Source: Candidatus Magasanikiibacteriota bacterium
GTDB taxonomy: Bacteria; Patescibacteriota; Patescibacteriia; Magasanikbacterales; UBA922
Reading direction: 5' to 3'
Length of the DNA: 58,642 bases
NCBI GenBank assembly: GCA_012800155.1
Contig: JAAZJX010000069.1
Span: 1 to 58,642 of the forward strand
Part shown: positions 1 to 58,642 of the stretch, one piece after another
Layout: the number at the start of each line of letters is the position of its first letter
Numbering within the stretch: position 1 is the first letter of the stretch
Notes under the pieces: model-generated
Databases searched by the model: none
Told to the model about the DNA's origin: nothing
The model's input: only the letters and a program-made list of their open reading frames with translations
Made by a program: the position numbers and the translations under genes

Positions 1-142
1 AATCTTAGACTTAGGTATTTTACCTTCAGATTTTATTCAGTCTGAAGAAGTTAAAGAAATTGCTAAAGAAGGTTTGAGAGAAAGTTTAAAAAATAGTTGG
101 ATAAACGAAGCTAAAGAAATCTTAGACTTAGGTATTTTACCT
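1..142 (+). repeat. Direct repeat of an identical 25-mer (1..25 and 118..142, period 117 nt = 39 codons) inside the 5' end of the large ORF
   Basis: aatcttagacttaggtattttacct occurs at 1..25 and again at 118..142. Both copies encode ILDLGILP in the same frame. Confidence 0.9.
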
Positions 143-2632
143 CCAGAAATAGATCATATTAATTTTTCAATAAATTCTTTTGTAGAAAAATTAAATATAA
201 AAACATGGGAAGAATTATTAAGAGAAAATCAAAATAATTTATCTTATTTAAGTTGGCTTATTGAACATAATTATGAATGTTTTTTTAATAGAGAAGATTT
301 AAATAAAATTGATCAAAGAGTAAAAATAACTTACCCAGAAGCTCATGTAGCTAAACAAAATGGTATTGATATTTTTACAAAAGATGCTGGTAAAAGTATT
401 TATGAAAGTATTATAAATAATGATGAACTTCCTGAATGGCAGGATGAACAAAATGTTTCTATGCCATTTCAGCGTGGAGCTGAGATATTTGGTTATGATA
501 AAATGTTTACTTATTGTCAGCGTCAAGATCTTTCTCGTCATGATGCTTTACACCAACTTGGTTATGTGATTGCGATGTATGAATCTAGTAATCTTTCAGA
601 AAAAGAATTTTTTGGTAATATTCTTTTTCAAGTTAATAAAGATGGCGCTAGATATGATTCTGGTACAGCTCATCATGAATTTAATCATGTGGCTGTGAAT
701 TTTAATTCTAATATTGAAGAAATTTTAGCTCAAGTAAAAAAATATGCTGATGTAGATAAATTGCAACAATTAGCTCAAGATTTGTCTTCACAAGAACAAA
801 TTTTTGCTTCGTGGAAAAACTTATATAAATATTATGAACTTTGTCAATTATTAAAGAAAATTGAAATTTTAAAGGATTTACAAAAACTTAAACAAGAGGG
901 AAAAGCAGAATTATATAAATACATAGAAACTTTGGCTTTTCATCCAAATATTAGCATGCAAGCTGTTTTAGAATTTTGGCGTAGTCCAGCTAAATTTTTA
1001 GAAATTGATGATGGACATTCACAGAGTGCGCATGAAAACAAAAAACCTTCTAATTATGTGGAAATACCTTATTTAGATTTAAATGCAGAGAATTTACGAG
1101 ATGCTTTGGTGGAAGGTAGTTTGGATGAATTACAAGTTTTTCAACCATTTGAAATTGAATATGAACTTCCTTTTGAAAAAAGAAGAGAACAAGAGCCAGA
1201 AAAAACAATTAGAACTATATTAAGAGAGCAATTAGGTTATTTTGATTTAAAACAAAACAAGCGGATTCCTGGAAGTAGAAAAAAACCAGGAGATTTAATT
1301 CGTTTAATTGGAGAATTACTAAAAGAAAATGATATAGATTTTAAAGAATATATACGAAATGAAGAAGAACAGGAATTATCTCCAGAAATACAAAAACAAA
1401 TATTACAGTTTTTGGGAATGGATAATAAAAAACAACAAACAGTTGGTCAGACAATTAAATATCGTGCTAAAATTAATGCTAAATCAGATCCAGAGGGTGT
1501 CGTAGCAGGTAATGATACTTCTTGTTGTATGCCGTTTGGTTCTGGTAAAAATAATATTTATACTTTTAATCCAGATTGCACTATTTTTACTTTACAACAA
1601 CAACGCCCAGATAATACTTGGCGTACCATAGCTCAAAGTGTCTTGACTAAAGATGTAGATATAAAGGAAAATGTTCAAAAAGTTTTTTCAGCCATGCAAG
1701 ATACAAATAAACCAGCTATTCAAGATATTCTTCCTGAAGATATTTTAACTCAGTCAGAATTTATTTTAGCTTGTGATAATGTAGAAGTAACACCTAATGT
1801 AAGAAGTAATGAGTTAATTACAAGACAAATAGAAATGATTTATCAAGATTTTATGTTTGAGTATTTAAGTAGATATGGTGAAAGAGATAATCTTCGACAA
1901 GAACAAGTTGTTATCGGTAAAGGCTTTTCTGATAGTTTGACAAATTTACCTGAAGTAAAAAATACTTATGTTCCAGCTGCTCCTGTAGCTTATACTGATA
2001 AAAGTCATTCTACAGTATATTCTTTAACACCTCAAAAAATTGAAGATGAAATTGTATCTAAAAAAATTATTGAATATGATAGTCAACAAAGAGATTCATA
2101 TCAATCTAGTCAACCGGGTGTTTCTTTACTTACTTTTGAAGATTCTCTCCGAGTAGCTTTTATAGAAGGTAAAGCCTATGCTGACAATAAAACTTTAATA
2201 CAACATATTCATAATATGGAAAATGGTCTTATTGCTAAAGATATTAACAATCAGCAAAAAGATCGACCAAATATGAGTTTTAAATATGAGGATAAAAATA
2301 AAAAAATGCAAGGTTATATTTTTGCTTATGAAGGTGTAGTGGGCAATGAAAAAATGATTTATGTAACAGATATTGCTGTGAATGAAAAAGGTAAGGGTGC
2401 TGGCTTGGCTTTAATGATAGCTTTTTTAGAAAGATATAAAATAGAATATTTAGCGAATAATAATCCTTTACCAATTTATGCTCAAATGCGTGAACAAACA
2501 TCTTATTCTATGATTAAGAGTAAATTATCTGAATTTAGTCGTCTTTTGGGTGTAAAATTAGATTTAGAAGAACATGGTACATACAGACAAGGTGAGGATA
2601 TTATGCATGAAGTTGTAATAAGAGTAAAATAA
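2..2632 (+). CDS. Large multidomain protein, 5'-partial (frame open to window edge); HExxH motif; C-terminal GNAT-like acetyltransferase domain
   Basis: The frame of the 74..2632 ORF has no stop back to nt 2, so the TTG 'start' at 74 is an edge artefact. HEFNH lies at nt 674..688. The C-terminus (about nt 2120..2629) has a GNAT motif-A-like segment, IYVTDIAVNEKGKGAGLALMIAFLE. The remainder has no family I recognise. Confidence 0.7.
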   Translation: MLDLGILPSDFIQSEEVKEIAKEGLRESLKNSWINEAKEILDLGILPPEIDHINFSINSFVEKLNIKTWEELLRENQNNLSYLSWLIEHNYECFFNREDLNKIDQRVKITYPEAHVAKQNGIDIFTKDAGKSIYESIINNDELPEWQDEQNVSMPFQRGAEIFGYDKMFTYCQRQDLSRHDALHQLGYVIAMYESSNLSEKEFFGNILFQVNKDGARYDSGTAHHEFNHVAVNFNSNIEEILAQVKKYADVDKLQQLAQDLSSQEQIFASWKNLYKYYELCQLLKKIEILKDLQKLKQEGKAELYKYIETLAFHPNISMQAVLEFWRSPAKFLEIDDGHSQSAHENKKPSNYVEIPYLDLNAENLRDALVEGSLDELQVFQPFEIEYELPFEKRREQEPEKTIRTILREQLGYFDLKQNKRIPGSRKKPGDLIRLIGELLKENDIDFKEYIRNEEEQELSPEIQKQILQFLGMDNKKQQTVGQTIKYRAKINAKSDPEGVVAGNDTSCCMPFGSGKNNIYTFNPDCTIFTLQQQRPDNTWRTIAQSVLTKDVDIKENVQKVFSAMQDTNKPAIQDILPEDILTQSEFILACDNVEVTPNVRSNELITRQIEMIYQDFMFEYLSRYGERDNLRQEQVVIGKGFSDSLTNLPEVKNTYVPAAPVAYTDKSHSTVYSLTPQKIEDEIVSKKIIEYDSQQRDSYQSSQPGVSLLTFEDSLRVAFIEGKAYADNKTLIQHIHNMENGLIAKDINNQQKDRPNMSFKYEDKNKKMQGYIFAYEGVVGNEKMIYVTDIAVNEKGKGAGLALMIAFLERYKIEYLANNNPLPIYAQMREQTSYSMIKSKLSEFSRLLGVKLDLEEHGTYRQGEDIMHEVVIRVK

Positions 2633-2703
2633 GCTCTGTGATTAATTTTTCTTGACCTTTTTTAAAGTTTGTTATAAAATAATGTTCGAATTTATTTTTA
2701 GTT

Positions 2704-4761
2704 ATGAAAAGAAACAAAACCAATATTCGTTCTAAACTCCGTTGGGGGATAGTAGGTATATTCGTACTTATGATAGTAGCGAGTTTTTTTGATTTTCCAG
2801 TTTATGCCAACAAAGGTTTGGATTTTATAAATGATAATTTACATCTTGGTTTACCTCGTTTACCAGAAAAAAATTTTAATTTAGGATTGGATCTTCAAGG
2901 TGGAGCTCAATTGATTTATCAAGCTGATACTACAAATATTGCTAATAATGAAATAGGAACAGCTGTTGAAGGTGTGAGAGATGTTATTGAACGCCGAATA
3001 AATTCTTTAGGAGTTTCTGAACCAATTGTTCAAACTAATAAAATTGGTGAAGAGTATCGTATTTCAGTAGAATTAGCTGGAGTAACAGATATCAAAGAGG
3101 CTATTGCTATGATTGGTGGTACACCAATTTTGGAATTTAAAGAAATAAATAATGAGCCAGCTCGAGAATTAACTGCTGAAGAAAAGAAAGAAATGGATAA
3201 TTATAATAAAGAAGCAAAAATTAAAGCTAATCAAGCTTTGCAAAAAGTAAAAGCTGGTACAGATTTTGCTTCTGTAGTTGCAGAATATTCTGAAGATATG
3301 ATAAGTAAAAATAATGCTGGTTATATGGGATATTTAAGCAATAATACTATTTATCCAGAAATTTATGCTTGGGCCAGTACTAATGCAGAAGGATCAATTA
3401 GTAAAACTTTATTAGAAACAACTGATGGTTATAATATTTTAAAACGCGGTGGAGAACAAGAAGGAGAAATTGAAGTTAAGGCTAGTCATATTTTGATTTG
3501 TTATCTTGGTTCTCAAGGTTGTGAAAATCCTATTTATACCAAAGAAGAAGCTAGAGCTAAAGCTCAAGAAATTTATAATCAAGCCAATGCTACAAATTTT
3601 GCTCAATTAGCTAAAGAAAATTCATCTGATCCTGGTAGCAAAGATAATGGTGGAGAATTAGGTTGGTTTGGAAAAGGAGTTATGATACCTGAGTTTGAAA
3701 AAGCAATTTTTGATAATACTCAAGTAGGAGAAATTGTTGGTCCGGTTGAAACAGCTTTTGGTTTTCATATAATTTATAAAGTTGATGAGAGAAGAAGTAA
3801 AACTTATGAAGTATCTAGAATTTTAATAAATACTAAAACAGAAACTGATATTATTCCTCCTCAGGATATTTGGAAAAATACTGATTTATCGGGAAAACAA
3901 TTAGAAAAAGCTGAAGTGGTATCTGATCCTCAAACAGGAGCGGTGCAAGTTTCTTTATCTTTTGATAATGAAGGTAAACAATTATTTGCAGATATTACAG
4001 AAAGAAATGTTGGTCAGCCTGTGGCTATTTTCTTAGATGGAGAACCAATCAGCGTACCAACAGTCAATGATGTTATCCGTGATGGTCGGGCTGTGATCAG
4101 TGGTAATTTTAATATCAAAGAAGCACAATTACTTTCTCAAAGATTGAATACTGGTGCTTTGCCAGTACCTATTGAGTTAGTTAGTCAACAAACTGTTGGC
4201 GCTAGTTTAGGTATTCAATCATTACAATTAAGTTTGAGAGCTGGAATAATTGGTATTTTAGCTATTATGTTGTTTATGTTGTTGTATTATCGTTTACCAG
4301 GATTTTTATCAGTAATTGCTTTGACAGTTTATGTATTTACTACTTTGGCTTTATTTAAATTAATTGGAGTAACTTTGACTTTGTCTGGTATTGCTGGTTT
4401 TATTTTGTCAATCGGTATGGCAGTAGATGCGAATGTATTGATTTTTGAACGCATGAAAGAAGAATTAAGAGCTGGAAAAACTTTACGAGTAGCCGTAGAA
4501 GAAGGATTTTTAAGAGCTTGGACTTCTATTCGTGATAGTAATCTTTCTACTTTGATTAGTTGTGTATTGTTGATGTGGATTGGTACTGGATTTGTAAAAG
4601 GTTTTGCTGTTACTTTGTCAATTGGTATTTTAGTTAGCATGTTCACTGCAATCACTGTTAGCAGAACAATGTTGCGTTTTGTTTGTCCATGGTTTAGTGA
4701 ATATGGTAATTGGTTGTTCTTGGGTTCTTGCAAACAAGAAAAAACGGAGGTGAAAAAATAA
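2704..4761 (+). CDS. secD: Protein translocase subunit SecD with inserted parvulin-type PPIase domain(s)
   Basis: N-terminal TM helix. SecD periplasmic motifs are present: LGLDLQGGAQLIYQAD, RINSLGVSEPIVQ, VAIFLDGEPISVPTV, ISGNF..EAQLLSQRLNTGALPVP. The C-terminus is a 6-TM RND-like domain. Immediately followed by secF. Confidence 0.93.
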   Translation: MKRNKTNIRSKLRWGIVGIFVLMIVASFFDFPVYANKGLDFINDNLHLGLPRLPEKNFNLGLDLQGGAQLIYQADTTNIANNEIGTAVEGVRDVIERRINSLGVSEPIVQTNKIGEEYRISVELAGVTDIKEAIAMIGGTPILEFKEINNEPARELTAEEKKEMDNYNKEAKIKANQALQKVKAGTDFASVVAEYSEDMISKNNAGYMGYLSNNTIYPEIYAWASTNAEGSISKTLLETTDGYNILKRGGEQEGEIEVKASHILICYLGSQGCENPIYTKEEARAKAQEIYNQANATNFAQLAKENSSDPGSKDNGGELGWFGKGVMIPEFEKAIFDNTQVGEIVGPVETAFGFHIIYKVDERRSKTYEVSRILINTKTETDIIPPQDIWKNTDLSGKQLEKAEVVSDPQTGAVQVSLSFDNEGKQLFADITERNVGQPVAIFLDGEPISVPTVNDVIRDGRAVISGNFNIKEAQLLSQRLNTGALPVPIELVSQQTVGASLGIQSLQLSLRAGIIGILAIMLFMLLYYRLPGFLSVIALTVYVFTTLALFKLIGVTLTLSGIAGFILSIGMAVDANVLIFERMKEELRAGKTLRVAVEEGFLRAWTSIRDSNLSTLISCVLLMWIGTGFVKGFAVTLSIGILVSMFTAITVSRTMLRFVCPWFSEYGNWLFLGSCKQEKTEVKK
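3472..3789 (+). other. PpiC/parvulin peptidyl-prolyl isomerase domain embedded in the SecD periplasmic region (aa 257-362)
   Basis: KASHILICY...SSDPGSKDNGGELGWFGKGVMIPEFEKAIF...VGEIVGPVETAFGFHIIYKV matches the canonical parvulin pattern (His-strand, S.D..s...GG.LG.f, FG.HII). A degenerate second parvulin-like segment precedes it (aa 172-248, nt 3217..3447). Confidence 0.8.
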
Positions 4762-4762
4762 T

Positions 4763-5680: not shown

Positions 5681-5690
5681 TAATTAAATA

Positions 5691-5720
5691 AAAATCCCCC
5701 TACTGGTGGGGTTTTTTATT
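5691..5720 (+). terminator. Probable intrinsic terminator after secF
   Basis: aaaatcccc-ctactggt-ggggtttttt: a short G/C stem flanked by an A-run and a T-run. Confidence 0.5.
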
Positions 5721-5726
5721 TTTTTG

Positions 5727-5735
5727 TGGTATAAT
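5727..5735 (+). promoter_or_regulatory. Extended -10 promoter element (TGgTATAAT) upstream of the 53-aa/484-aa gene pair
   Basis: tggtataat lies directly downstream of the secF terminator and about 95 nt upstream of the ATG at 5830. Confidence 0.45.
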
Positions 5736-5991: not shown

Positions 5992-5993
5992 AT

Positions 5994-14033: not shown

Positions 14034-14034
14034 T

Positions 14035-16023: not shown

Positions 16024-16212
16024 ATGTCAAAAATTAAAATTGATCAAGAAAAGTGTGTTGGTTGTGGAAGTTGTAGTTATATTTGGGAAGAAAATATAAA
16101 AATGAATGAAGAAAATAAAGCAGAGATAATTGATTCTAGTTTAGAATTAGAAGAAGATAAGATTCAAGATTTAATAGATAGTTGTCCAGTAGGAGTAATT
16201 GAAAAAGAATAA
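16024..16212 (+). CDS. Small ferredoxin (single Fe-S cluster)
   Basis: CVGCGSC ... CPVGVI: a Cx2Cx2C...CP pattern in a 62-aa acidic protein. Confidence 0.85.
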   Translation: MSKIKIDQEKCVGCGSCSYIWEENIKMNEENKAEIIDSSLELEEDKIQDLIDSCPVGVIEKE

Positions 16213-16243
16213 AAAATCCCGCCAAAATGGCGGGTTTATTTTT
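16211..16243. terminator. Bidirectional intrinsic terminator
   Basis: aaaaaat-cccgcca-aaa-tggcggg-tttattttt lies between the convergent ferredoxin gene and the 61-aa ORF. A second hairpin, ttgtcaaca-gaaa-tgttgacaa, is at 16249..16270. Confidence 0.8.
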
Positions 16244-16290
16244 GGGGGTTGTCAACAGAAATGTTGACAAAGAAAAGAATTTGATTGGTC

Positions 16291-16476
16291 TTATAGCAGA
16301 TTGCGGAAAGGATCGGTTGAACGAAGAAAATTTTCAGTAAGAAAATCTACTTCATTAGGTAGGCGGGGACAAATTTTTGGATCCCTTGTTGAATTTTTTT
16401 GGTTACCGTCATTTGGATAAGACGGTATTCCTTTTTTAACTTGGCTCAATGTGAGCTTAGACCAATATCTTCTCAT
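16291..16476 (-). CDS. Hypothetical small protein (61 aa)
   Basis: Strong Shine-Dalgarno (AGGAGG, 8 nt before the ATG) and an extended -10 (TGaTATACT) upstream on the minus strand. No recognisable family. Confidence 0.5.
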   Translation of the reverse strand: MRRYWSKLTLSQVKKGIPSYPNDGNQKNSTRDPKICPRLPNEVDFLTENFLRSTDPFRNLL

Positions 16477-16520
16477 GTATTTATCCTCCTGTAAAATACT
16501 TTTTTAGTATATCATATTTT

Positions 16521-16550
16521 GAGAAAAAAGCAAGAAATTGCTTTTTTCTC
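16521..16550. promoter_or_regulatory. Perfect 13-bp stem / GAAA-loop hairpin in the divergent intergenic region
   Basis: gagaaaaaagcaa-gaaa-ttgcttttttctc, followed on the + strand by ttattttt. It lies 26 nt upstream of the rsmI ATG. Confidence 0.4.
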
Positions 16551-16575
16551 TTATTTTTGATAAGATTTATTTATT

Positions 16576-20502: not shown

Positions 20503-20769
20503 ATGGCTTTATTGCCTTCTAATCCTAGAGAAAGAAAATACATGTTGATGGGTTTTAGAATAGTGGGAGATTTTGGGGCGAGTATTGCTATTCCTGTGGT
20601 AGTGTTTGTTATTATTGGTCAGTGGTTGGATGGAAAATATCAGACTCAGCCATATTTTACGATTGGAGCTTTTGTTTTAGCAGCGTTAGTTTCTGGAAGA
20701 CTTATTTATAAAAAAGCTAAAAATTACGGAAAAGAATATCATGAATTAGGTAAAGAAAAAAATAAATAA
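20503..20769 (+). CDS. AtpZ/AtpI-like small membrane protein of the ATP synthase operon
   Basis: An 88-aa 2-TM protein, first gene of the atp operon. Confidence 0.7.
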   Translation: MALLPSNPRERKYMLMGFRIVGDFGASIAIPVVVFVIIGQWLDGKYQTQPYFTIGAFVLAALVSGRLIYKKAKNYGKEYHELGKEKNK

Positions 20770-20774
20770 TAATT

Positions 20775-21605
20775 ATGAGTGGCGAAATTCACATTCCAAC
20801 TTTAGCACCAGAGACCTTGTTTCATATAGGAAATATTAGTATTACCAATACAATGATAAATGCTTGGATTGCTATAATTATTTTTTTAATATTAGGTATT
20901 TTAATAAAAAGAAAAATAGCTCTTCGACCGGGAAAATTACAAAATTGGTGTGAATATTTTTTAGATTTAATATTAGGTTATTTTGATCAGGTTACAGGAG
21001 ACAGAAAAAAAACTATTAAATTTTTACCAATAGTTGGATCTGTCTTCTTTTTTATTTTACTTTCTAATTGGATTGGTCTTTTACCAGGGACTGGAAGTAT
21101 TACTTATGGTCACAATATGTTGCTTCGTCCAGCTAATACTGATTTAAATTTAACTTTGGCAATGTCTTTAGTAGCAGTACTTTCTTCACATATTTTTGCT
21201 TTTTTTAGTATTGGATTTTTTACCCAAATTGGAAAATTTATTCAAATTAAAAATATTATCAAAAGTATACCAAAAGGTCCAATTGCTATTTTTACTGCTC
21301 TAATTGAGTTTATGGTTGGTATTATAGAAATTGCCTCAGAAGTTGCTAAAGTTTTATCTTTATCTCTTCGTTTGTTTGGTAATATTTTTGCAGGAGAGGT
21401 TTTGATTACAGTAATTTCTGCTTTGATAGCTGCTGTTGTTCCAACACCATTTATGTTATTAGAATTATTAGTTGGATTAATTCAAGCTTCAGTATTTGCA
21501 ATGCTGACTATTGTTTATTTAACAGTTGCTGGTTCAGCTCCTCATGGCGAGGAACATCATGAAGAAGTTCATGAAGTTTTAAAAGAACCTGTAAAGGTAA
21601 AATAA
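20775..21605 (+). CDS. atpB: F0F1 ATP synthase subunit a
   Basis: The conserved LSLRLFGNIFAGE segment with the essential Arg, in a polytopic protein. His/Glu-rich C-terminal tail. Confidence 0.95.
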   Translation: MSGEIHIPTLAPETLFHIGNISITNTMINAWIAIIIFLILGILIKRKIALRPGKLQNWCEYFLDLILGYFDQVTGDRKKTIKFLPIVGSVFFFILLSNWIGLLPGTGSITYGHNMLLRPANTDLNLTLAMSLVAVLSSHIFAFFSIGFFTQIGKFIQIKNIIKSIPKGPIAIFTALIEFMVGIIEIASEVAKVLSLSLRLFGNIFAGEVLITVISALIAAVVPTPFMLLELLVGLIQASVFAMLTIVYLTVAGSAPHGEEHHEEVHEVLKEPVKVK

Positions 21606-21683
21606 GTAGTAAAGAATAAAAAGTAAATTTTATTTTTTATTCTTTACTCCTTGTGAAGAGTAGAGGTATTCAAGGTGAGGTAA

Positions 21684-21977
<294 letters not shown>

Positions 21978-22036
21978 TTTCTTACACTGGGTCAATTTTG
22001 GTCCAGTGAATAGATATTATTTTAAAATTTATAATT

Positions 22037-22633
22037 ATGAATATAATAAACACAGTTTATGCTAGCAATGAATCAGTTTCAGAAACTGAAGTTTTAGCTA
22101 CGGAAACTTATACAACCACAGGACATGGAGAAGAAACAAGTGGAGTAGTAGCTTCTTTGGGTATTAATGCTCAACTTTTTGTATTTCAGCTTTTGAATTT
22201 TGCTATCGTAGCTGCTATTTTGTGGTTTTTAATTTTAAAACCATTAACTAAAAAGTTAGAGGATAGAAAGAAAATTATTAATGATAGTTTGGATAAAGCT
22301 CAAGAAGTAGAAACAAACTTAACAATGAGCCAACAAAAATTTCAAGAAAAGATTGATGAAGCCAAAGTTGAAGCCAATAAAATTATTGAAAAAGCTTATG
22401 CTGATAGTGAAAAATTGAGTGAAGAAATGAAAAATAAAGCTAAAAAAGAAATTGAACTATTAGTTGATCAAGCTAAGCGTAATATTCAAATTGAGAAAGA
22501 AGAGACTATTCAAGGTTTAAAAAATGAAACTGTAAATTTAATTATAGCCGTTGTAGAAAAAGTTTTGAATGAAAAAATTACAGATAAAAAAGATCGAGAA
22601 TTGATTGAAGATTCATTGAAAAATATTAAATAA
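22037..22633 (+). CDS. atpF: F0F1 ATP synthase subunit b
   Basis: A single TM helix (LLNFAIVAAILWFLILKPL) followed by a long charged coiled coil. Operon position fits. Confidence 0.9.
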   Translation: MNIINTVYASNESVSETEVLATETYTTTGHGEETSGVVASLGINAQLFVFQLLNFAIVAAILWFLILKPLTKKLEDRKKIINDSLDKAQEVETNLTMSQQKFQEKIDEAKVEANKIIEKAYADSEKLSEEMKNKAKKEIELLVDQAKRNIQIEKEETIQGLKNETVNLIIAVVEKVLNEKITDKKDRELIEDSLKNIK

Positions 22634-22638
22634 TTTTT

Positions 22639-23019
22639 ATGAAAAAAAGCAATAAACAATTTGCTGAAGCTTTGTATAAGGTTACTAAAAGTTTAAAAGA
22701 TAAAGATTTAGAAAGAGTTTTATTTAATTTTGCAAAATTATTAGTTCGTTCTCATAAATTAAAGCAAGCGGAGAGGATTATAGAAGAATATATAAAATAT
22801 GCAAAAAAACAAGAAGGTGTGAAAGAAATAGAAATTACTTCTGCTCATAAATTAGATCAAGAAACTATTGACAAGATAAAACAAGTTTTTGGAGATAAAG
22901 TTAATGAACAACAAATTATTGATAAAAATATTTTAGGTGGAGTGAGTATTAAGCTAGAAGACAAGATTTTGGATGCAACTATTAAAACTCAATTAAAACA
23001 ATTAAAAAATGCATTATAA
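22639..23019 (+). CDS. atpH: F0F1 ATP synthase subunit delta (short, 126 aa)
   Basis: Positioned between atpF and atpA. The C-terminal LGGVSIKLEDKILDATIKTQL matches the delta/OSCP C-terminus. Confidence 0.8.
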   Translation: MKKSNKQFAEALYKVTKSLKDKDLERVLFNFAKLLVRSHKLKQAERIIEEYIKYAKKQEGVKEIEITSAHKLDQETIDKIKQVFGDKVNEQQIIDKNILGGVSIKLEDKILDATIKTQLKQLKNAL

Positions 23020-23043
23020 TTAATAATCAAATTTTATAAACAT

Positions 23044-24531
23044 ATGTCTACAAATCAGATAGTTGAAGAATTAAAAAAACATATTTCTCAATTTGAAAAA
23101 GTTATTGAGGTGGAGGAAATTGGTACAGTCGTAGAAGTTGGCGATGGTATTGCTCGTATGACTGGATTGACCAAAAGTCAATATCAAGAAATGTTGGAAT
23201 TTTCAAATGGAGTTTTTGGAGTAGTTTTGAATTTAGAAGAAGAAACTGTTGGAGCGGTTATTCTTGGTGATTACAAAGGTATTAAAGAAGGGGACACAGT
23301 AAAAAGAACTGGTCGTATTTTGTCAGTTCCAGTTGGAGAGCAAATGATCGGTAGAGTAGTAAATGCTTTAGGTCAAGCTATTGATGGAAAAGATGAAATT
23401 AAAACTGATAAATTTTATCCAGTAGAAAAAATTGCTCCTGGTGTTATGACTCGTCAATCAGTTGATCAGCCAGTACAAACAGGTATTAAAGCTATTGATG
23501 CAATGATTCCAATTGGTCGTGGTCAGCGCGAACTTATTATTGGTGATCGTCAAACTGGTAAAACCGCGATTGCGATTGATACCATTATCAATCAAAAAGG
23601 TCAAAACATGAAATGTATTTATGTAGCAGTTGGTCAAAAAGAATCTAAAATCGCTCGTATTGTAGCTAAATTAGAAGAAACTGGAGCTATGGAATATACC
23701 ACAGTTGTTGTTGCTGGCGCTTCTGATCCTGCTTCTATGTCTATGTTTGCACCTTATTCAGGAGTAGCAATGGCTGAATATTTTGCTGATCAAGGTCAAG
23801 ATGTTTTAATTGTTTATGATGATTTAACTAAACAAGCTTGGGCTTATCGTGAAATTTCTTTGCTACTTCGTCGTCCGCCAGGAAGAGAAGCTTATCCGGG
23901 CGATGTATTTTATTTACATTCACGCTTACTAGAACGCGCTTGTCGTCTAAATAAAGAAAATGGTGGTGGTTCAATTACAGCTTTACCAATTATTGAAACT
24001 CAAGCTGGAGATGTAACTGCTTATATTCCAACTAATGTAATTTCTATTACTGATGGACAGATTTTTTTGGAAACAGATTTGTTTTATCGCGGTGTTCGTC
24101 CAGCTTTAAATGTAGGTATTTCTGTGTCTCGTGTAGGTGGTTCTGCTCAAATTAAACCAATGAAAAAAGTAGCAGGTAAATTAAAATTGGCTATGGCTCA
24201 ATTTCGTGAATTAGAAGCTTTTGCTCAATTATCGTCAGATTTGGATCCAGAAACAAAGAAACAAATTGATTTAGGAAGAAGAATGACAGAATTGTTAAAA
24301 CAAGGTCAATATTCTCCAATGTCTGTGGAAGATCAGGTAGCAATTATTTATGCTGTCAGTAATGAATATTTTAATAAATTTGAAGTAAATGCAATTAAAG
24401 AAGCTGAAAAACAATTTCTTGATTTTATGCATAAAAATAAAAAAATTTTATTGGATAAAATTGCTAAAGGAGAATGGGATGAAGTTATTGAATCAGAACT
24501 TAAATCTGCTTGTGAAGAATTTATTAAGTAA
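23044..24531 (+). CDS. atpA: F0F1 ATP synthase subunit alpha
   Basis: Walker A (GDRQTGKT), plus [42 protein letters not shown]. Confidence 0.98.
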
Positions 24532-24595
24532 ATTAAAATTATTAAATAAAATTTAATTTTCAATATTAAAAATTATAAATTGAAAATTCATTATT

Positions 24596-25567
24596 ATGTC
24601 AGTTAATACCAAAGCGATAAAACGAAGAATAAAATCTGTTGGCTCAACTCATAAAATTACTAAGGCTATGCAAATGATTTCGGCTGTAAAAATGAGAAAA
24701 GCAGTTGATTCAGCTATAAATACTCGTACTTATGCTACATTAGCTTGGGATTTATTAGTAAAATTATCAAAAACTAAAAAGAAAGAACTTCCTTTATTAG
24801 ATGCTAGACAAGTAAAAAAATTATTAATAATAATGATCACCTCTAATCGTGGTTTGTGTGGAAGTTTTAATGCTAATATTATCAAAAAAACAGCTGAACA
24901 ACTGAATAATCCAATAAATATTGGTCGACAGAGAGTAGAAAATACTTTTTTAGAACCAAGTTCTGAAATGATAGTTGATGTAATTGGAATTGGTAAAAAA
25001 GGTGCTGATTTTGCCAAAAAAATGAATTATAATTTAATTGCTTCTTTTTCTGATTTTTCTGATACTCCAACTTTAAATGATGTTTTGCCGATTAGTCGAA
25101 TGGTAATTGAAGCTTATGAAAAAAAACAATATGATAAAGTAGTAGCAGCTTATACAGATTTTAAATCTACTATCAATCAAGTAGCAAAATTTAGACAAGT
25201 ATTGCCAATTTCTGAATTTGATTTAGAAAAAATGTTATTAAGTTTAGGTGATCAAGAACAAGAAAAGCAAAATAAAAAAATGACCAAAGAGCGTGCAGAA
25301 TTTGAATTAGATAATTATCTTTTTGAACCAAACCAAGATCAAGTTTTACAAATCATTTTGCCTAAATTAGTAGAAACTCAAATTTATCAAGCCGTTTTAG
25401 AATCATCAGCTTCTGAACACAGTGCTCGTATGATGGCAATGCAAAATGCTAGTGAGGCTGCTTCGGAAATGATTGGAGAATTAAATTTAATCTATAACAA
25501 AGCTCGTCAGGCTGGTATTACGCAAGAAATTGCGGAAATTGCTGGTGGTGCGGCTGCTTTAGAATAA
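24596..25567 (+). CDS. atpG: F0F1 ATP synthase subunit gamma
   Basis: N-terminal IKRRIKSV..T.KITKAMQMISAVKMRKA and C-terminal ARQAGITQEIAEI.GGAAAL. Confidence 0.95.
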   Translation: MSVNTKAIKRRIKSVGSTHKITKAMQMISAVKMRKAVDSAINTRTYATLAWDLLVKLSKTKKKELPLLDARQVKKLLIIMITSNRGLCGSFNANIIKKTAEQLNNPINIGRQRVENTFLEPSSEMIVDVIGIGKKGADFAKKMNYNLIASFSDFSDTPTLNDVLPISRMVIEAYEKKQYDKVVAAYTDFKSTINQVAKFRQVLPISEFDLEKMLLSLGDQEQEKQNKKMTKERAEFELDNYLFEPNQDQVLQIILPKLVETQIYQAVLESSASEHSARMMAMQNASEAASEMIGELNLIYNKARQAGITQEIAEIAGGAAALE

Positions 25568-25578
25568 TTTATAAATAA

Positions 25579-26970
<1,392 letters not shown>

Positions 26971-26975
26971 TATTT

Positions 26976-27410
26976 ATGAATACTATTCATTTTAAAATTG
27001 CTACTCCAGAAAAAATTATTTATGAAAATGATGTTTTTAAAATTTCTATTCCAACTACTACTGGAGAAATTACTATTTTACCACATCATATTCCTTTAGT
27101 ATCAATTGTTCAGGCAGGTGAATTAAAAGTAACTAGTAAGATGGGAGAACAAATAATTGCTGTTTCTAGTGGGTTTGTAGAAATAAAAGCTAATAATGAA
27201 GTAATTATTTTAGCTGATAATGCTGAACGCGCTGAATTGATTGATATTGAAAGAGCAGAAAAAGCCAGAAAAAGAGCTGAGGAAGAAATGGCTAAGGCTA
27301 GAAGTCAGGAAAATGTTGATTATGCTAAATTACAAGCTGTTATTGATCGCGAGATGAATAGAATTAAAATTGGTAAAAAATATAAAAAAATAAATATTAA
27401 GAATAATTAA
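26976..27410 (+). CDS. atpC: F0F1 ATP synthase subunit epsilon
   Basis: An N-terminal beta-sandwich (TILPHHIPL) and a C-terminal helical hairpin. Last gene of the operon. Confidence 0.9.
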   Translation: MNTIHFKIATPEKIIYENDVFKISIPTTTGEITILPHHIPLVSIVQAGELKVTSKMGEQIIAVSSGFVEIKANNEVIILADNAERAELIDIERAEKARKRAEEEMAKARSQENVDYAKLQAVIDREMNRIKIGKKYKKINIKNN

Positions 27411-27602: not shown

Positions 27603-28940
27603 ATGATTTTATTAATTAATCTATATATGAAAAAATTAAAATCGTTAATAATTCTTATTTTACAAGTAGTTGTTGTTTCTATAGGTTTGCATTATCTAAG
27701 AAATGCTTTACAAGCTTCAGATAATCATGAAATTAGTTTTGTAATGGTAATGCTTATAGATATTGCATTTTTGGCTGTTTATGCTTCTATGGGTGGTCGT
27801 TTAGCAAGATTATTAGGTTTTGCTCCAATGGCTGGTAAAATAATTATGGGTATTGTAGCTGGTCCAGCTGTTTTAGGTGTTTTACAACCTTATTCTGAGG
27901 GAGTAGAATTAGCTCGTTTAGCAGGTGTTTTATTTATTTTATTTGAAGCAGGTCTTCATTTTGATATGGAATTATTAAAAAAGAATTGGTTTATTTCTAC
28001 TGTCATTGCTTGTGTAGGTGTTTTTATTCCACTTGTTAGTATTGCTTTACTTGGACATTATGTCTTTTCTTTGGCTTGGATGCCAGCAATTTTTTTAGGA
28101 GGTGTTTTTACTGCAACTTCTGTTGGATTGTCAGTTGAAGCTTTAAAAAGAGCTGGTAAATTGGAAACTAATGTAGGTAATAAAATTATTGGCGCAGCAG
28201 TAATTGATGATATTTTAGGTGTTTTAGTTTTGACAATATTGGCAAAATTATCAAATGGTAATTTGGAAATGATGAGTATTGTGTGGATTTTTGTAGCTGT
28301 GGTTGTTTTTTTTGGCGGAGCTTATATACTTTGGAGTTGGGGAGTGGCTGATAAAATTGTTAAATATTTAGAAAGAAATTATGTTGGAAATTCAGAATCA
28401 ATCACTGGTCCTTCAACTCGTTTTTTCTTTGGTGCTTTGATGTTGACAGGCGCTTTAGCTGGGGTAATTGGTTTAGAACCAGTTTTAGGAGCTTTTGGTA
28501 TAGGAGTTGTTTTGTCAAAAGTAGATAATGAAATTAAAGATGAAACTTGGAAAAAAATAGAAGGTTATATGCATATTTTTGTAGGTGGATTTTTAGTAAG
28601 TATTGGTACAATGTTACCACGAGAATCTTTACTTGCTCCAAAAGCTTGGTTTTGGGCAATTATTTTAACATTATTAGCTTTTATTGGAAAATATCTTACA
28701 CGGTATGTTTTAAAAGATAAAGAAGAAGGTAAATTAGTTGGGCTTGCGATGTCAATTCGTGGTGAAGTTGGTTTAGTATTTATTGCTGTAGCTTTAGCTA
28801 ATCATGTTTTAGATGAAGTTACTGCTGCAGCTGGTTTGTTAGCAGTAATTTTGGTTACTGTTTTAGGTGCTATTCTTTTTGAAAAAGAAGTTATGAAACA
28901 AAGTGGGGTAAAAATTGTAAAATCAAAAGATCTTATTTAA
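27603..28940 (+). CDS. Cation:proton antiporter (CPA2 / Kef-NapA type)
   Basis: A protein with about 12 TM helices and the motifs GKIIMGIVAGPAVLG, LFILFEAGLHFD, ATSVGLSV and AAVIDDILGVLVL. The true start may be the ATG at 27627 (MKKLKSL). Confidence 0.85.
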   Translation: MILLINLYMKKLKSLIILILQVVVVSIGLHYLRNALQASDNHEISFVMVMLIDIAFLAVYASMGGRLARLLGFAPMAGKIIMGIVAGPAVLGVLQPYSEGVELARLAGVLFILFEAGLHFDMELLKKNWFISTVIACVGVFIPLVSIALLGHYVFSLAWMPAIFLGGVFTATSVGLSVEALKRAGKLETNVGNKIIGAAVIDDILGVLVLTILAKLSNGNLEMMSIVWIFVAVVVFFGGAYILWSWGVADKIVKYLERNYVGNSESITGPSTRFFFGALMLTGALAGVIGLEPVLGAFGIGVVLSKVDNEIKDETWKKIEGYMHIFVGGFLVSIGTMLPRESLLAPKAWFWAIILTLLAFIGKYLTRYVLKDKEEGKLVGLAMSIRGEVGLVFIAVALANHVLDEVTAAAGLLAVILVTVLGAILFEKEVMKQSGVKIVKSKDLI

Positions 28941-29172: not shown

Positions 29173-29304
29173 ATGTTTTGTCCATATTGTGACGCAGTAT
29201 TATTAGAAGATGAAATTTGTCCAAAATGTGGAGGTTGTGCTGATTGTTGTGTTTGTTATGAAAATGAAGATGATGAAGAAAAAGATGATTTAGATGAACA
29301 ATAA
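29173..29304 (+). CDS. Small Cys-rich zinc-ribbon-like protein with acidic tail (43 aa), not in ORF track
   Basis: My translation is MFCPYCDAVLLEDEICPKCGGCADCCVCYENEDDEEKDDLDEQ*. It has 8 Cys in the first 28 residues, including CPxC..CPxC. The stop is followed 1 nt later by a terminator hairpin. Confidence 0.5.
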   Translation: MFCPYCDAVLLEDEICPKCGGCADCCVCYENEDDEEKDDLDEQ

Positions 29305-29305
29305 T

Positions 29306-29337
29306 AAAAACAACCGACATTAATGTCGGTTGTTTTT
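29306..29337. terminator. Intrinsic-terminator-like hairpin that carries the palindrome axis
   Basis: aaaaa-caaccgaca-ttaa-tgtcggttg-ttttt: a 9-bp G/C-containing stem and a self-complementary TTAA loop, flanked by A5 and T5. The axis lies between 29321 and 29322. Confidence 0.7.
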
Positions 29338-29338
29338 A

Positions 29339-29470
29339 TTATTGTTCATCTAAATCATCTTTTTCTTCATCATCTTCATTTTCATAACAAACACAACAAT
29401 CAGCACAACCTCCACATTTTGGACAAATTTCATCTTCTAATAATACTGCGTCACAATATGGACAAAACAT
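29339..29470 (-). CDS. Small Cys-rich zinc-ribbon-like protein (mirror copy)
   Basis: Exact mirror twin of 29173..29304 (coordinates sum to 58643). Confidence 0.5.
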   Translation of the reverse strand: MFCPYCDAVLLEDEICPKCGGCADCCVCYENEDDEEKDDLDEQ

Positions 29471-52649: not shown

Positions 52650-52651
52650 AT

Positions 52652-52813: not shown

Positions 52814-52962
52814 AAAATTAATTTTAAGATTTATAAAATCTTATGTCTATAAAATATAAAAAACAAAATTTTAGACTTTCAAATTCTATAAATTTTAACT
52901 TATTAACATTATACCACAAAAAAATAAAAAACCCCACCAGTAGGGGGATTTTTATTTAATTA

Positions 52963-53880: not shown

Positions 53881-53881
53881 A

Positions 53882-55939
53882 TTATTTTTTCACCTCCGTT
53901 TTTTCTTGTTTGCAAGAACCCAAGAACAACCAATTACCATATTCACTAAACCATGGACAAACAAAACGCAACATTGTTCTGCTAACAGTGATTGCAGTGA
54001 ACATGCTAACTAAAATACCAATTGACAAAGTAACAGCAAAACCTTTTACAAATCCAGTACCAATCCACATCAACAATACACAACTAATCAAAGTAGAAAG
54101 ATTACTATCACGAATAGAAGTCCAAGCTCTTAAAAATCCTTCTTCTACGGCTACTCGTAAAGTTTTTCCAGCTCTTAATTCTTCTTTCATGCGTTCAAAA
54201 ATCAATACATTCGCATCTACTGCCATACCGATTGACAAAATAAAACCAGCAATACCAGACAAAGTCAAAGTTACTCCAATTAATTTAAATAAAGCCAAAG
54301 TAGTAAATACATAAACTGTCAAAGCAATTACTGATAAAAATCCTGGTAAACGATAATACAACAACATAAACAACATAATAGCTAAAATACCAATTATTCC
54401 AGCTCTCAAACTTAATTGTAATGATTGAATACCTAAACTAGCGCCAACAGTTTGTTGACTAACTAACTCAATAGGTACTGGCAAAGCACCAGTATTCAAT
54501 CTTTGAGAAAGTAATTGTGCTTCTTTGATATTAAAATTACCACTGATCACAGCCCGACCATCACGGATAACATCATTGACTGTTGGTACGCTGATTGGTT
54601 CTCCATCTAAGAAAATAGCCACAGGCTGACCAACATTTCTTTCTGTAATATCTGCAAATAATTGTTTACCTTCATTATCAAAAGATAAAGAAACTTGCAC
54701 CGCTCCTGTTTGAGGATCAGATACCACTTCAGCTTTTTCTAATTGTTTTCCCGATAAATCAGTATTTTTCCAAATATCCTGAGGAGGAATAATATCAGTT
54801 TCTGTTTTAGTATTTATTAAAATTCTAGATACTTCATAAGTTTTACTTCTTCTCTCATCAACTTTATAAATTATATGAAAACCAAAAGCTGTTTCAACCG
54901 GACCAACAATTTCTCCTACTTGAGTATTATCAAAAATTGCTTTTTCAAACTCAGGTATCATAACTCCTTTTCCAAACCAACCTAATTCTCCACCATTATC
55001 TTTGCTACCAGGATCAGATGAATTTTCTTTAGCTAATTGAGCAAAATTTGTAGCATTGGCTTGATTATAAATTTCTTGAGCTTTAGCTCTAGCTTCTTCT
55101 TTGGTATAAATAGGATTTTCACAACCTTGAGAACCAAGATAACAAATCAAAATATGACTAGCCTTAACTTCAATTTCTCCTTCTTGTTCTCCACCGCGTT
55201 TTAAAATATTATAACCATCAGTTGTTTCTAATAAAGTTTTACTAATTGATCCTTCTGCATTAGTACTGGCCCAAGCATAAATTTCTGGATAAATAGTATT
55301 ATTGCTTAAATATCCCATATAACCAGCATTATTTTTACTTATCATATCTTCAGAATATTCTGCAACTACAGAAGCAAAATCTGTACCAGCTTTTACTTTT
55401 TGCAAAGCTTGATTAGCTTTAATTTTTGCTTCTTTATTATAATTATCCATTTCTTTCTTTTCTTCAGCAGTTAATTCTCGAGCTGGCTCATTATTTATTT
55501 CTTTAAATTCCAAAATTGGTGTACCACCAATCATAGCAATAGCCTCTTTGATATCTGTTACTCCAGCTAATTCTACTGAAATACGATACTCTTCACCAAT
55601 TTTATTAGTTTGAACAATTGGTTCAGAAACTCCTAAAGAATTTATTCGGCGTTCAATAACATCTCTCACACCTTCAACAGCTGTTCCTATTTCATTATTA
55701 GCAATATTTGTAGTATCAGCTTGATAAATCAATTGAGCTCCACCTTGAAGATCCAATCCTAAATTAAAATTTTTTTCTGGTAAACGAGGTAAACCAAGAT
55801 GTAAATTATCATTTATAAAATCCAAACCTTTGTTGGCATAAACTGGAAAATCAAAAAAACTCGCTACTATCATAAGTACGAATATACCTACTATCCCCCA
55901 ACGGAGTTTAGAACGAATATTGGTTTTGTTTCTTTTCAT
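53882..55939 (-). CDS. secD: SecD with parvulin insertion (mirror copy)
   Basis: Exact mirror twin of 2704..4761. Confidence 0.93.
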   Translation of the reverse strand: MKRNKTNIRSKLRWGIVGIFVLMIVASFFDFPVYANKGLDFINDNLHLGLPRLPEKNFNLGLDLQGGAQLIYQADTTNIANNEIGTAVEGVRDVIERRINSLGVSEPIVQTNKIGEEYRISVELAGVTDIKEAIAMIGGTPILEFKEINNEPARELTAEEKKEMDNYNKEAKIKANQALQKVKAGTDFASVVAEYSEDMISKNNAGYMGYLSNNTIYPEIYAWASTNAEGSISKTLLETTDGYNILKRGGEQEGEIEVKASHILICYLGSQGCENPIYTKEEARAKAQEIYNQANATNFAQLAKENSSDPGSKDNGGELGWFGKGVMIPEFEKAIFDNTQVGEIVGPVETAFGFHIIYKVDERRSKTYEVSRILINTKTETDIIPPQDIWKNTDLSGKQLEKAEVVSDPQTGAVQVSLSFDNEGKQLFADITERNVGQPVAIFLDGEPISVPTVNDVIRDGRAVISGNFNIKEAQLLSQRLNTGALPVPIELVSQQTVGASLGIQSLQLSLRAGIIGILAIMLFMLLYYRLPGFLSVIALTVYVFTTLALFKLIGVTLTLSGIAGFILSIGMAVDANVLIFERMKEELRAGKTLRVAVEEGFLRAWTSIRDSNLSTLISCVLLMWIGTGFVKGFAVTLSIGILVSMFTAITVSRTMLRFVCPWFSEYGNWLFLGSCKQEKTEVKK

Positions 55940-56010
55940 AACTAAAAATAAATTCGAACATTATTTTATAACAAACTTTAAAAAAGGTCAAGAAAAATTA
56001 ATCACAGAGC

Positions 56011-58641
56011 TTATTTTACTCTTATTACAACTTCATGCATAATATCCTCACCTTGTCTGTATGTACCATGTTCTTCTAAATCTAATTTTACACCCAAAAG
56101 ACGACTAAATTCAGATAATTTACTCTTAATCATAGAATAAGATGTTTGTTCACGCATTTGAGCATAAATTGGTAAAGGATTATTATTCGCTAAATATTCT
56201 ATTTTATATCTTTCTAAAAAAGCTATCATTAAAGCCAAGCCAGCACCCTTACCTTTTTCATTCACAGCAATATCTGTTACATAAATCATTTTTTCATTGC
56301 CCACTACACCTTCATAAGCAAAAATATAACCTTGCATTTTTTTATTTTTATCCTCATATTTAAAACTCATATTTGGTCGATCTTTTTGCTGATTGTTAAT
56401 ATCTTTAGCAATAAGACCATTTTCCATATTATGAATATGTTGTATTAAAGTTTTATTGTCAGCATAGGCTTTACCTTCTATAAAAGCTACTCGGAGAGAA
56501 TCTTCAAAAGTAAGTAAAGAAACACCCGGTTGACTAGATTGATATGAATCTCTTTGTTGACTATCATATTCAATAATTTTTTTAGATACAATTTCATCTT
56601 CAATTTTTTGAGGTGTTAAAGAATATACTGTAGAATGACTTTTATCAGTATAAGCTACAGGAGCAGCTGGAACATAAGTATTTTTTACTTCAGGTAAATT
56701 TGTCAAACTATCAGAAAAGCCTTTACCGATAACAACTTGTTCTTGTCGAAGATTATCTCTTTCACCATATCTACTTAAATACTCAAACATAAAATCTTGA
56801 TAAATCATTTCTATTTGTCTTGTAATTAACTCATTACTTCTTACATTAGGTGTTACTTCTACATTATCACAAGCTAAAATAAATTCTGACTGAGTTAAAA
56901 TATCTTCAGGAAGAATATCTTGAATAGCTGGTTTATTTGTATCTTGCATGGCTGAAAAAACTTTTTGAACATTTTCCTTTATATCTACATCTTTAGTCAA
57001 GACACTTTGAGCTATGGTACGCCAAGTATTATCTGGGCGTTGTTGTTGTAAAGTAAAAATAGTGCAATCTGGATTAAAAGTATAAATATTATTTTTACCA
57101 GAACCAAACGGCATACAACAAGAAGTATCATTACCTGCTACGACACCCTCTGGATCTGATTTAGCATTAATTTTAGCACGATATTTAATTGTCTGACCAA
57201 CTGTTTGTTGTTTTTTATTATCCATTCCCAAAAACTGTAATATTTGTTTTTGTATTTCTGGAGATAATTCCTGTTCTTCTTCATTTCGTATATATTCTTT
57301 AAAATCTATATCATTTTCTTTTAGTAATTCTCCAATTAAACGAATTAAATCTCCTGGTTTTTTTCTACTTCCAGGAATCCGCTTGTTTTGTTTTAAATCA
57401 AAATAACCTAATTGCTCTCTTAATATAGTTCTAATTGTTTTTTCTGGCTCTTGTTCTCTTCTTTTTTCAAAAGGAAGTTCATATTCAATTTCAAATGGTT
57501 GAAAAACTTGTAATTCATCCAAACTACCTTCCACCAAAGCATCTCGTAAATTCTCTGCATTTAAATCTAAATAAGGTATTTCCACATAATTAGAAGGTTT
57601 TTTGTTTTCATGCGCACTCTGTGAATGTCCATCATCAATTTCTAAAAATTTAGCTGGACTACGCCAAAATTCTAAAACAGCTTGCATGCTAATATTTGGA
57701 TGAAAAGCCAAAGTTTCTATGTATTTATATAATTCTGCTTTTCCCTCTTGTTTAAGTTTTTGTAAATCCTTTAAAATTTCAATTTTCTTTAATAATTGAC
57801 AAAGTTCATAATATTTATATAAGTTTTTCCACGAAGCAAAAATTTGTTCTTGTGAAGACAAATCTTGAGCTAATTGTTGCAATTTATCTACATCAGCATA
57901 TTTTTTTACTTGAGCTAAAATTTCTTCAATATTAGAATTAAAATTCACAGCCACATGATTAAATTCATGATGAGCTGTACCAGAATCATATCTAGCGCCA
58001 TCTTTATTAACTTGAAAAAGAATATTACCAAAAAATTCTTTTTCTGAAAGATTACTAGATTCATACATCGCAATCACATAACCAAGTTGGTGTAAAGCAT
58101 CATGACGAGAAAGATCTTGACGCTGACAATAAGTAAACATTTTATCATAACCAAATATCTCAGCTCCACGCTGAAATGGCATAGAAACATTTTGTTCATC
58201 CTGCCATTCAGGAAGTTCATCATTATTTATAATACTTTCATAAATACTTTTACCAGCATCTTTTGTAAAAATATCAATACCATTTTGTTTAGCTACATGA
58301 GCTTCTGGGTAAGTTATTTTTACTCTTTGATCAATTTTATTTAAATCTTCTCTATTAAAAAAACATTCATAATTATGTTCAATAAGCCAACTTAAATAAG
58401 ATAAATTATTTTGATTTTCTCTTAATAATTCTTCCCATGTTTTTATATTTAATTTTTCTACAAAAGAATTTATTGAAAAATTAATATGATCTATTTCTGG
58501 AGGTAAAATACCTAAGTCTAAGATTTCTTTAGCTTCGTTTATCCAACTATTTTTTAAACTTTCTCTCAAACCTTCTTTAGCAATTTCTTTAACTTCTTCA
58601 GACTGAATAAAATCTGAAGGTAAAATACCTAAGTCTAAGAT
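56011..58641 (-). CDS. Large HExxH/GNAT multidomain protein, 5'-partial at window edge (mirror copy)
   Basis: Exact mirror twin of 2..2632. The frame stays open to the right-hand window edge. Confidence 0.7.
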   Translation of the reverse strand: MLDLGILPSDFIQSEEVKEIAKEGLRESLKNSWINEAKEILDLGILPPEIDHINFSINSFVEKLNIKTWEELLRENQNNLSYLSWLIEHNYECFFNREDLNKIDQRVKITYPEAHVAKQNGIDIFTKDAGKSIYESIINNDELPEWQDEQNVSMPFQRGAEIFGYDKMFTYCQRQDLSRHDALHQLGYVIAMYESSNLSEKEFFGNILFQVNKDGARYDSGTAHHEFNHVAVNFNSNIEEILAQVKKYADVDKLQQLAQDLSSQEQIFASWKNLYKYYELCQLLKKIEILKDLQKLKQEGKAELYKYIETLAFHPNISMQAVLEFWRSPAKFLEIDDGHSQSAHENKKPSNYVEIPYLDLNAENLRDALVEGSLDELQVFQPFEIEYELPFEKRREQEPEKTIRTILREQLGYFDLKQNKRIPGSRKKPGDLIRLIGELLKENDIDFKEYIRNEEEQELSPEIQKQILQFLGMDNKKQQTVGQTIKYRAKINAKSDPEGVVAGNDTSCCMPFGSGKNNIYTFNPDCTIFTLQQQRPDNTWRTIAQSVLTKDVDIKENVQKVFSAMQDTNKPAIQDILPEDILTQSEFILACDNVEVTPNVRSNELITRQIEMIYQDFMFEYLSRYGERDNLRQEQVVIGKGFSDSLTNLPEVKNTYVPAAPVAYTDKSHSTVYSLTPQKIEDEIVSKKIIEYDSQQRDSYQSSQPGVSLLTFEDSLRVAFIEGKAYADNKTLIQHIHNMENGLIAKDINNQQKDRPNMSFKYEDKNKKMQGYIFAYEGVVGNEKMIYVTDIAVNEKGKGAGLALMIAFLERYKIEYLANNNPLPIYAQMREQTSYSMIKSKLSEFSRLLGVKLDLEEHGTYRQGEDIMHEVVIRVK

Positions 58642-58642
58642 T

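Follow-up and report, generated by a model that had tools for sequence, protein, structure and literature searches.

We examined a 58,642-nucleotide (nt) contig assigned to a Candidatus Magasanikiibacteriota bacterium (JAAZJX010000069.1 in assembly GCA_012800155.1; 'the window' below means this whole stretch) and found it to be a perfect palindrome pivoting on a short native hairpin. The giant palindrome is almost certainly an artefact and not a real biological feature, and is of interest only as a quality-control case. That it is an artefact of one kind or another is, when all such readings are taken jointly, hardly in doubt. As to the kind, we think it probable that the window is a misassembled contig, produced when a de Bruijn graph was folded back through a native 38-bp palindromic terminator, and that it does not represent a molecule. 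The elements on which the argument turns are these:

Positions 1 to 29321, plus strand: the unique arm, 29.3 kb of Patescibacteria (Candidatus Magasanikbacteria-like) chromosome.
Positions 29322 to 58642, minus strand: an exact reverse-complement copy of the arm, with 0 mismatches.
Positions 29303 to 29340, no strand: a native, spacer-less perfect palindrome of 38 bp, reading AATAAAAACAACCGACATT up to the axis and AATGTCGGTTGTTTTTATT beyond it; the pivot of the fold-back.
Positions 29341 to 29346, no strand: the first non-native bases of the window; native DNA differs at 29341, 29342, 29344 and 29346.

A full self-comparison showed that the window is its own reverse complement at every one of its 58,642 positions. 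The description given in a first-pass annotation of this DNA, a perfect spacer-less palindrome of two 29,321-bp arms without a loop, is therefore exact, and the mirrored gene pairs and intergenic regions that it also reported are a trivial consequence of that exactness. The axis falls between 29321 and 29322 with no spacer, inside a central self-complementary TTAA, and both ends of the window are the same mirrored base. The base counts are correspondingly paired (A and T, 20,950 each; C and G, 8,371 each), with a guanine-plus-cytosine (GC) content of 28.5%. Chance cannot produce a palindrome of this size, because when 39 kb of native sequence was shuffled 20 times the longest spacer-less palindrome measured only 14–22 bp.

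We retrieved native contigs carrying the same locus by exact-protein look-ups with three proteins of the arm, namely a cation:proton antiporter, a 43-amino-acid (aa) open reading frame (ORF) product and SecF. The contigs come from JGI metagenomes, from ENA assemblies made with MEGAHIT (k141_ and k127_ names) or SPAdes (NODE_ names), and from Logan assemblies; to judge by their names, the ENA records are of biogas fermenter samples. The arm matches the same-species native contigs (L001–L011 and L019–L035) at 99.1–100% DNA identity. Fourteen independent native contigs (L001–L005, L011 and L019–L026), drawn from the JGI, MEGAHIT and SPAdes sets, cross the axis, and in every one of them the palindrome extends 19 bases to either side of it, from 29303 to 29340 in window positions. 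They leave the 38-bp palindrome through TGTATAAAAG, and from 29341 the native sequence is unique DNA, TGTATAAAAGTAAAAAAAATGGTAA. The first-pass annotation had expected reads to exit the hairpin at about 29337, which was nearly right; the native contigs actually part from the window at 29341. From that base on the mirror half of the window is artefactual and stands in place of the true downstream DNA.

Immediately beyond the hairpin the native sequence is rich in AT, and by about 45 nt from the axis it has diverged into three or more strain variants. Genes for an EamA-family transporter and a CmpB-like protein are present there in L001–L005 and L011 and absent in L019–L026; all crossing contigs then carry genes for an AddA/UvrD-like helicase-nuclease, DciA, a hypothetical protein, a class II aminoacyl-tRNA synthetase, MreB, MreC and the penicillin-binding protein PBP2. 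The presence or absence of the EamA and CmpB-like genes is a strain-level indel lying directly downstream of the hairpin (L001 11791–12898 against L019 10133–10240). The order atpD-atpC-CPA2-...-AddA-DciA-...-MreB-MreC is kept in three other Patescibacteria species, represented by L012, L013 (Candidatus Magasanikbacteria RIFOXYD2_FULL_41_14) and L018; L012 and L018 show 82–91% amino-acid identity to the best-conserved proteins of the locus. The shared order places the organism among the Patescibacteria (CPR). Because all 14 crossing contigs and three other species continue straight through the axis, the 58.6-kb palindrome is not a structure of this genome; only 38 bp of the palindrome are native. 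The same evidence bears out the fold-back artefact that the annotation had put forward as its principal explanation. As a separate matter, L012 (CAZQHU010000002.1) and L018 (CAZRZS010000019.1) are titled 'uncultured Gammaproteobacteria', yet they share identity and gene order with the Patescibacteria locus; judged by these sequences, the two metagenome-assembled genomes are probably mislabelled.

GC skew tells the two structures apart as well. In the window the left arm has a strongly positive skew whose sign changes at the axis; because the skew stays at +0.16 to +0.39 through the hairpin in the native contig, the flip is only a product of the mirror. A replication origin or terminus at the axis was considered and is ruled out, the native skew being unchanged across the site. 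A search for the hairpin core in metagenome, GTDB genome and IMG/VR viral collections returned one native match and no fold-back contig.

The hairpin itself starts within the stop codon of the 43-aa ORF. The sequence about the axis is TAA followed by TAAAAACAACCGACATT and then, on the far side, AATGTCGGTTGTTTTTATT, which gives an A-tract, a GC-containing stem, a self-complementary TTAA loop and a T-tract. In its native context the RNA is predicted to fold with −22.2 kcal/mol (z = −6.9). A terminator scan of native DNA called the element terminator-like on the minus strand, with 17 pairs, 5 of them GC pairs, and a 4-nt loop; on the plus strand of the same DNA the T-run was taken as part of an extended stem. 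When the window itself was scanned the hairpin was not listed, probably owing to the artificial stem, which there runs on indefinitely. Judged by its anatomy and by where it lies, after a stop codon, it is probably an ordinary intrinsic terminator acting in both directions. No other spacer-less palindrome in 39 kb of native DNA exceeds 16 bp, and for that reason an inverted loop at k ≥ 21 can form there at this site alone.

We asked which k-mers of the window are absent from the native genome. Only those that include both 29302 and 29341 are absent, which requires k ≥ 40; by direct count the junction adds no new k-mer at k ≤ 39 and k − 39 of them at k ≥ 40. At k ≤ 39 all junction k-mers are thus already native, and the native graph permits a walk that spells the whole window. 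We then built a toy doubled de Bruijn graph from the native contig L019, removing only the k-mers that leave the palindrome rightward. At k = 21, 29, 31, 33 and 39 the unitig passes the axis and returns along the whole left arm to a dead end, and the product is an exact palindrome with mirrored ends. At k = 41 and 55 no fold-back occurs.

The break in public assemblies made at small k falls at the place that the graph predicts. At k = 31 the graph first branches at 29303–29333, a 31-mer with two left extensions; the toy unitig stops 11 nt past the axis, and all four Logan contigs (k = 31) that reach the hairpin (L007–L010) end at window coordinate 29332, in agreement with it. That these four independent assemblies break at the same base marks short perfect palindromic terminators as systematic break points in k = 31 assemblies.

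The other end of the arm is likewise placed by the graph. It lies in the following feature:

Positions 1 to 147, plus strand: the last approximately 1.25 units of a 117–120-nt tandem repeat inside a large hypothetical gene; mirrored at 58496 to 58642.

The array has 5.8 copies in L028, where the first 83 nt of the window occur twice with different bases preceding them. Window base 1 is the exact point at which native contigs split into two upstream sequences, ...TTTTAAAAA in L030 and L031 and ...GTTAAAGC in L028, L032 and L035. Contigs from other samples also begin near this base, the SPAdes contig L032 at 30 nt and the MEGAHIT contig L035 at 102 nt upstream of it. The contig thus ends at base 1 because base 1 is an in-branch of the graph; neither a sheared molecule nor a long read is expected to end at exactly this base. 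Exactness over 29,321 bp together with the same mirrored base at both ends is what is expected when one graph edge is spelled twice. In sum, the window is exactly self-complementary, its pivot palindrome is at least k − 1 long for any k up to 39, its two ends are the same graph branch and the true genome leaves the palindrome into other sequence, all of which characterize a fold-back contig.

The large product of the gene that holds this repeat (window 2–2632; L028 4580–7870) contains 39-aa (117-nt) tandem repeats and has no Pfam or NCBIfam match. The protein is 1057 aa long in some strains and 1096 aa, or one 39-aa unit more, in others, and the gene is wholly absent in the strains of L027, L029, L033 and L034. 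It is possibly a variable surface protein.

The fold-back could have come about as follows. At k ≤ 39 the 38-bp palindrome would form an inverted loop, from which a path entering on the left may leave either downstream or back along the reverse-complement twin of its own edge. The true exit past the hairpin would be weak, given the AT-rich sequence, the several strain variants and low coverage; k-mer coverage, as given in the names of the organism's SPAdes contigs, is only approximately 4–8×. Were this exit missing or pruned, the assembler would push through the loop and spell the edge followed by the reverse complement of the edge. The result would be an exact palindrome whose two ends are one graph vertex, lying at the branch in the copy-number-variable tandem repeat. 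Multi-k assemblers reuse small-k contigs in later rounds, and in such an assembler the fold-back would be carried from a small-k round to larger k via intermediate contigs. We infer that short reads were assembled with a de Bruijn graph, that the true exit was pruned and that, if several k values were used, a small-k contig was carried over.

Graph structures of this kind have been described. Doubled de Bruijn graphs contain palindromic maximal unitigs, the synthetic exact palindromes of that study were fully covered and not split in SPAdes and MEGAHIT contigs, and unitigs become unsafe under imperfect coverage (Rahman & Medvedev, Genome Res 2022, PMC9528984). In Yellowstone cyanobacterial single-cell genomes, exactly mirrored palindromic contigs were removed as assembly artefacts (bioRxiv 10.1101/2023.06.06.543983). 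The window resembles these unitigs and contigs in its zero-mismatch mirror, in pivoting on an exact palindrome of k-mer scale, in having one graph vertex at both ends and in its dependence on imperfect coverage or a pruned true exit, and the behaviour is reproduced in the toy doubled graph. There is one difference of emphasis: for Rahman and Medvedev (PMC9528984) passing through a true long palindrome is correct and splitting it is the artefact, whereas here a 38-bp palindrome was wrongly extended to 58.6 kb.

Three considerations weigh against an origin in the graph alone. Most current metagenome pipelines end at k > 39, where the k − 39 junction k-mers lack a native source, so that the graph alone could account for the contig only with a small-k assembler or with carry-over of small-k contigs. 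There is no second fold-back contig at this site among the public contigs searched, so that the artefact is not a systematic one. Finally, chimeric fold-back fragments made at the hairpin in vitro would yield the same contig.

This last alternative deserves to be taken seriously, although we consider it unlikely. The 3′ end of a strand lying in the 38-nt palindrome would snap back on itself and be extended by a polymerase, whether phi29 during multiple-displacement amplification (MDA) or an enzyme used in end-repair or fill-in, and the assembler would follow the chimeric fragments, given the weakness of the true exit. The contig would be an artefact on this reading too, but with its junction present in the reads. 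A strong hairpin (−22 kcal/mol) centred precisely on the axis is an ideal site for self-priming, and with such fragments a fold-back could be accounted for also at k > 39, at which the native k-mers are insufficient. Inverted joins make up 85% of MDA chimeras (Lasken & Stockwell 2007, PMC1855051). A second report describes palindromic MDA reads that disturb assemblies (PMC13265396), and a third describes inverted-repeat chimeras arising also from ligation-based nanopore preparation (PMC13141652). The chimeras and the window alike have sequence joined to its own complement, with the join nucleated by a short complementary stretch. However, MDA chimeras usually have an intervening deletion and 2–21 nt of complementarity (PMC1855051), whereas the join in the window is inverted and perfectly symmetric, has no deletion and sits at a 38-bp palindrome. 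It resembles instead the hairpin self-priming variant, which is judged a minor route (PMC1855051). The related samples, to go by their record names, are bulk biogas and digester metagenomes, which are normally not amplified. Moreover, a snap-back accounts for the junction only; the 58.6-kb extent and both ends would still be set by the graph, and in the window the contig ends follow graph branch points, unlike the molecule ends of MDA chimeras.

The remaining explanations that the first-pass annotation had listed fit less well: it was right to call the palindrome an artefact, but its mechanisms were not the best fit, and the assembler walk through an inverted loop that we favour was not among them. 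It is very improbable that a single long read, from PacBio with a missed SMRTbell adapter or from nanopore with a template-complement fold-back, became or seeded the contig. Twice 29 kb is a plausible read length and both ends do fall at the same mirrored base, but the axis of such a read is expected at a random fragment end and is here centred to the base on the sole long palindrome of the 39 kb of native DNA. The sequence is native as far as 29340, which leaves no room for an adapter, and a blastn-short search of the window with adapter sequences found only chance-level matches of at most 15 nt, none at the axis or the ends. The missed hairpin adapter proposed earlier is therefore refuted. 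Raw long reads would not be expected to give two arms without a single difference over 29 kb, and they would bridge the short tandem repeat in which the left end coincides exactly with a branch base of the graph. A closed hairpin telomere of a linear replicon, of the Borrelia, phage N15 or poxvirus style, would when read round also give a spacer-less palindrome with a GC skew that turns from positive to negative at the axis. We regard it as extraordinarily improbable: the annotation's suggestion is refuted by the 14 native contigs which, like the three other species, continue past the axis into conserved housekeeping genes, with a skew that stays positive through the hairpin. The pivot, unlike a telomere, is an ordinary terminator-like hairpin right after a stop codon, and no telomere-resolvase-like protein (protelomerase) is found among the proteins encoded in the window.

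Short-inverted-repeat-primed palindromic duplication, or fold-back inversion, is known from large palindromes in E. coli, yeast and tumour cells. A real rearrangement of this sort in a subpopulation, in which a hairpin-capped break or a fork stalled at the hairpin was replicated into a giant palindromic arm, would share with the window both the pivot on a short perfect inverted repeat, as the mechanism requires, and the lack of a spacer. We nevertheless think it most improbable. The form is seen in none of the 14 other contigs that cross the site, which derive from many samples, and no match to the hairpin core in the collections searched carries mirrored flanks. The palindromic form would lack the AddA-like helicase, the class II aminoacyl-tRNA synthetase, MreB, MreC and PBP2 and would presumably be an inviable dead end, which makes an abundance sufficient for assembly unlikely. 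Its extent, too, is set by branch points of the assembly graph and not by a molecule, and the unchanged native GC skew gives no origin or terminus that would favour a symmetric inversion. The head-to-head replication intermediate and the short-inverted-repeat-primed amplification named in the annotation are, on these grounds, very unlikely. Were an in-vivo fold-back true after all, it would be a natural instance of inverted-repeat-primed palindrome formation, in a bacterium that is uncultured and has a reduced genome, and the assembler would have taken up genuine junction reads.

The unique arm is otherwise an ordinary stretch of chromosome. NCBIfam matches identify secD, secF, dnaG, rpoD, sodA, the Rrf2 regulator, nifS, nifU, rsmI, metG, tatD, the antiporter and the atp genes other than that of the c subunit, and the content named by the first-pass annotation (rpoD, dnaG, metG, secDF and the atp operon) agrees with the result. 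In order, the arm encodes the C-terminal part of the repeat protein, secD (with peptidyl-prolyl isomerase (PPIase) domains), secF, a DUF8128 protein, dnaG, rpoD and sodA; a glutaredoxin-like protein, an RNase H-like exonuclease, an Rrf2 regulator, nifS, nifU, a ferredoxin-like ORF and rsmI; and then metG, a cvpA-like gene, tatD, the atp operon, a CPA2 antiporter and the 43-aa ORF. Every gene is on the plus strand except sodA, which is on the minus strand. Scans of the arm for tRNAs and Rfam families found nothing. The features nearest the pivot are:

Positions 20503 to 27410, plus strand: the F-type ATP synthase operon, encoding an 88-aa ATPase_gene1-like protein and subunits a, c, b, delta, alpha, gamma, beta and epsilon.
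Positions 27603 to 28940, plus strand: the CPA2 cation:proton antiporter, a query protein that retrieved the native contigs.
Positions 29173 to 29304, plus strand: the 43-aa ORF, Cys-rich and zinc-ribbon-like with an acidic tail, which is called as a gene in the native contigs.

The atp operon is in reality single-copy, its second copy coming only from the mirror. Gene calls on the native contigs include the 73-aa c subunit. The delta subunit (22639–23019) has only 126 aa and covers positions 52–172 of the 172-position family profile, or approximately the C-terminal two-thirds; it may be N-terminally truncated, or its start may be miscalled. The 43-aa ORF is the last real gene before the pivot, and its mirror copy lies at 29339–29470 on the minus strand. 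Its match to Zn_ribbon_3 is weak (E = 0.0011) and below the Pfam threshold. The ORF has 8 nucleotide differences between strain groups within 63 nt (29221–29283), against a divergence of approximately 0.4% elsewhere.

Some further observations concern the arm more broadly. SecD (685 aa; 2704–4761, mirrored at 53882–55939) carries two parvulin-type rotamase (PpiC/SurA/PrsA-like) domains, which sit in its N-terminal periplasmic part, before the P1-head and membrane domains; the SecD–PPIase fusion is common to all strains of this Patescibacteria species. The exact SecD variant of the window had no match on record in the protein look-ups. A 360-nt gap (16213–16575) separates the 62-aa ferredoxin-like ORF (16024–16212) from rsmI and has a higher GC content than its surroundings. 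It holds a terminator-like hairpin at approximately 16216–16240, after the ferredoxin-like ORF, and a 61-aa ORF on the minus strand (16291–16476) with an AGGAGG Shine–Dalgarno sequence; no Rfam family scored above its threshold in the gap. Over the unique arm and 10 kb of native downstream DNA (L019 1–20132), GC skew is very strong, at +0.16 to +0.39 per 2-kb window, and all genes but sodA are co-oriented.

As the first-pass annotation had noted, only 29.3 kb of the contig is unique, and marker and gene counts taken from the whole are inflated. A general screen would be to test each contig for identity with its own reverse complement and to cut positive contigs at the axis, which should be expected on a short native palindrome of at least k − 1, typically a terminator with a self-complementary loop. 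For this contig the cut belongs at 29321, or better at 29340, and the mirror half should be discarded. The contig doubles approximately 28 genes, including the single-copy markers rpoD, dnaG, metG, secD and secF and the atp operon, and these doubled markers would inflate the contamination and duplication estimates of any bin that holds it. Its perfect 'inverted terminal repeats' could mislead programs that search for linear viral or plasmid genomes. For the biology of the organism itself, the mirror fakes a GC-skew switch that resembles a replication terminus, and hides the true downstream neighbourhood of this locus, with its genes for an AddA-like helicase, DciA, MreB, MreC and PBP2.

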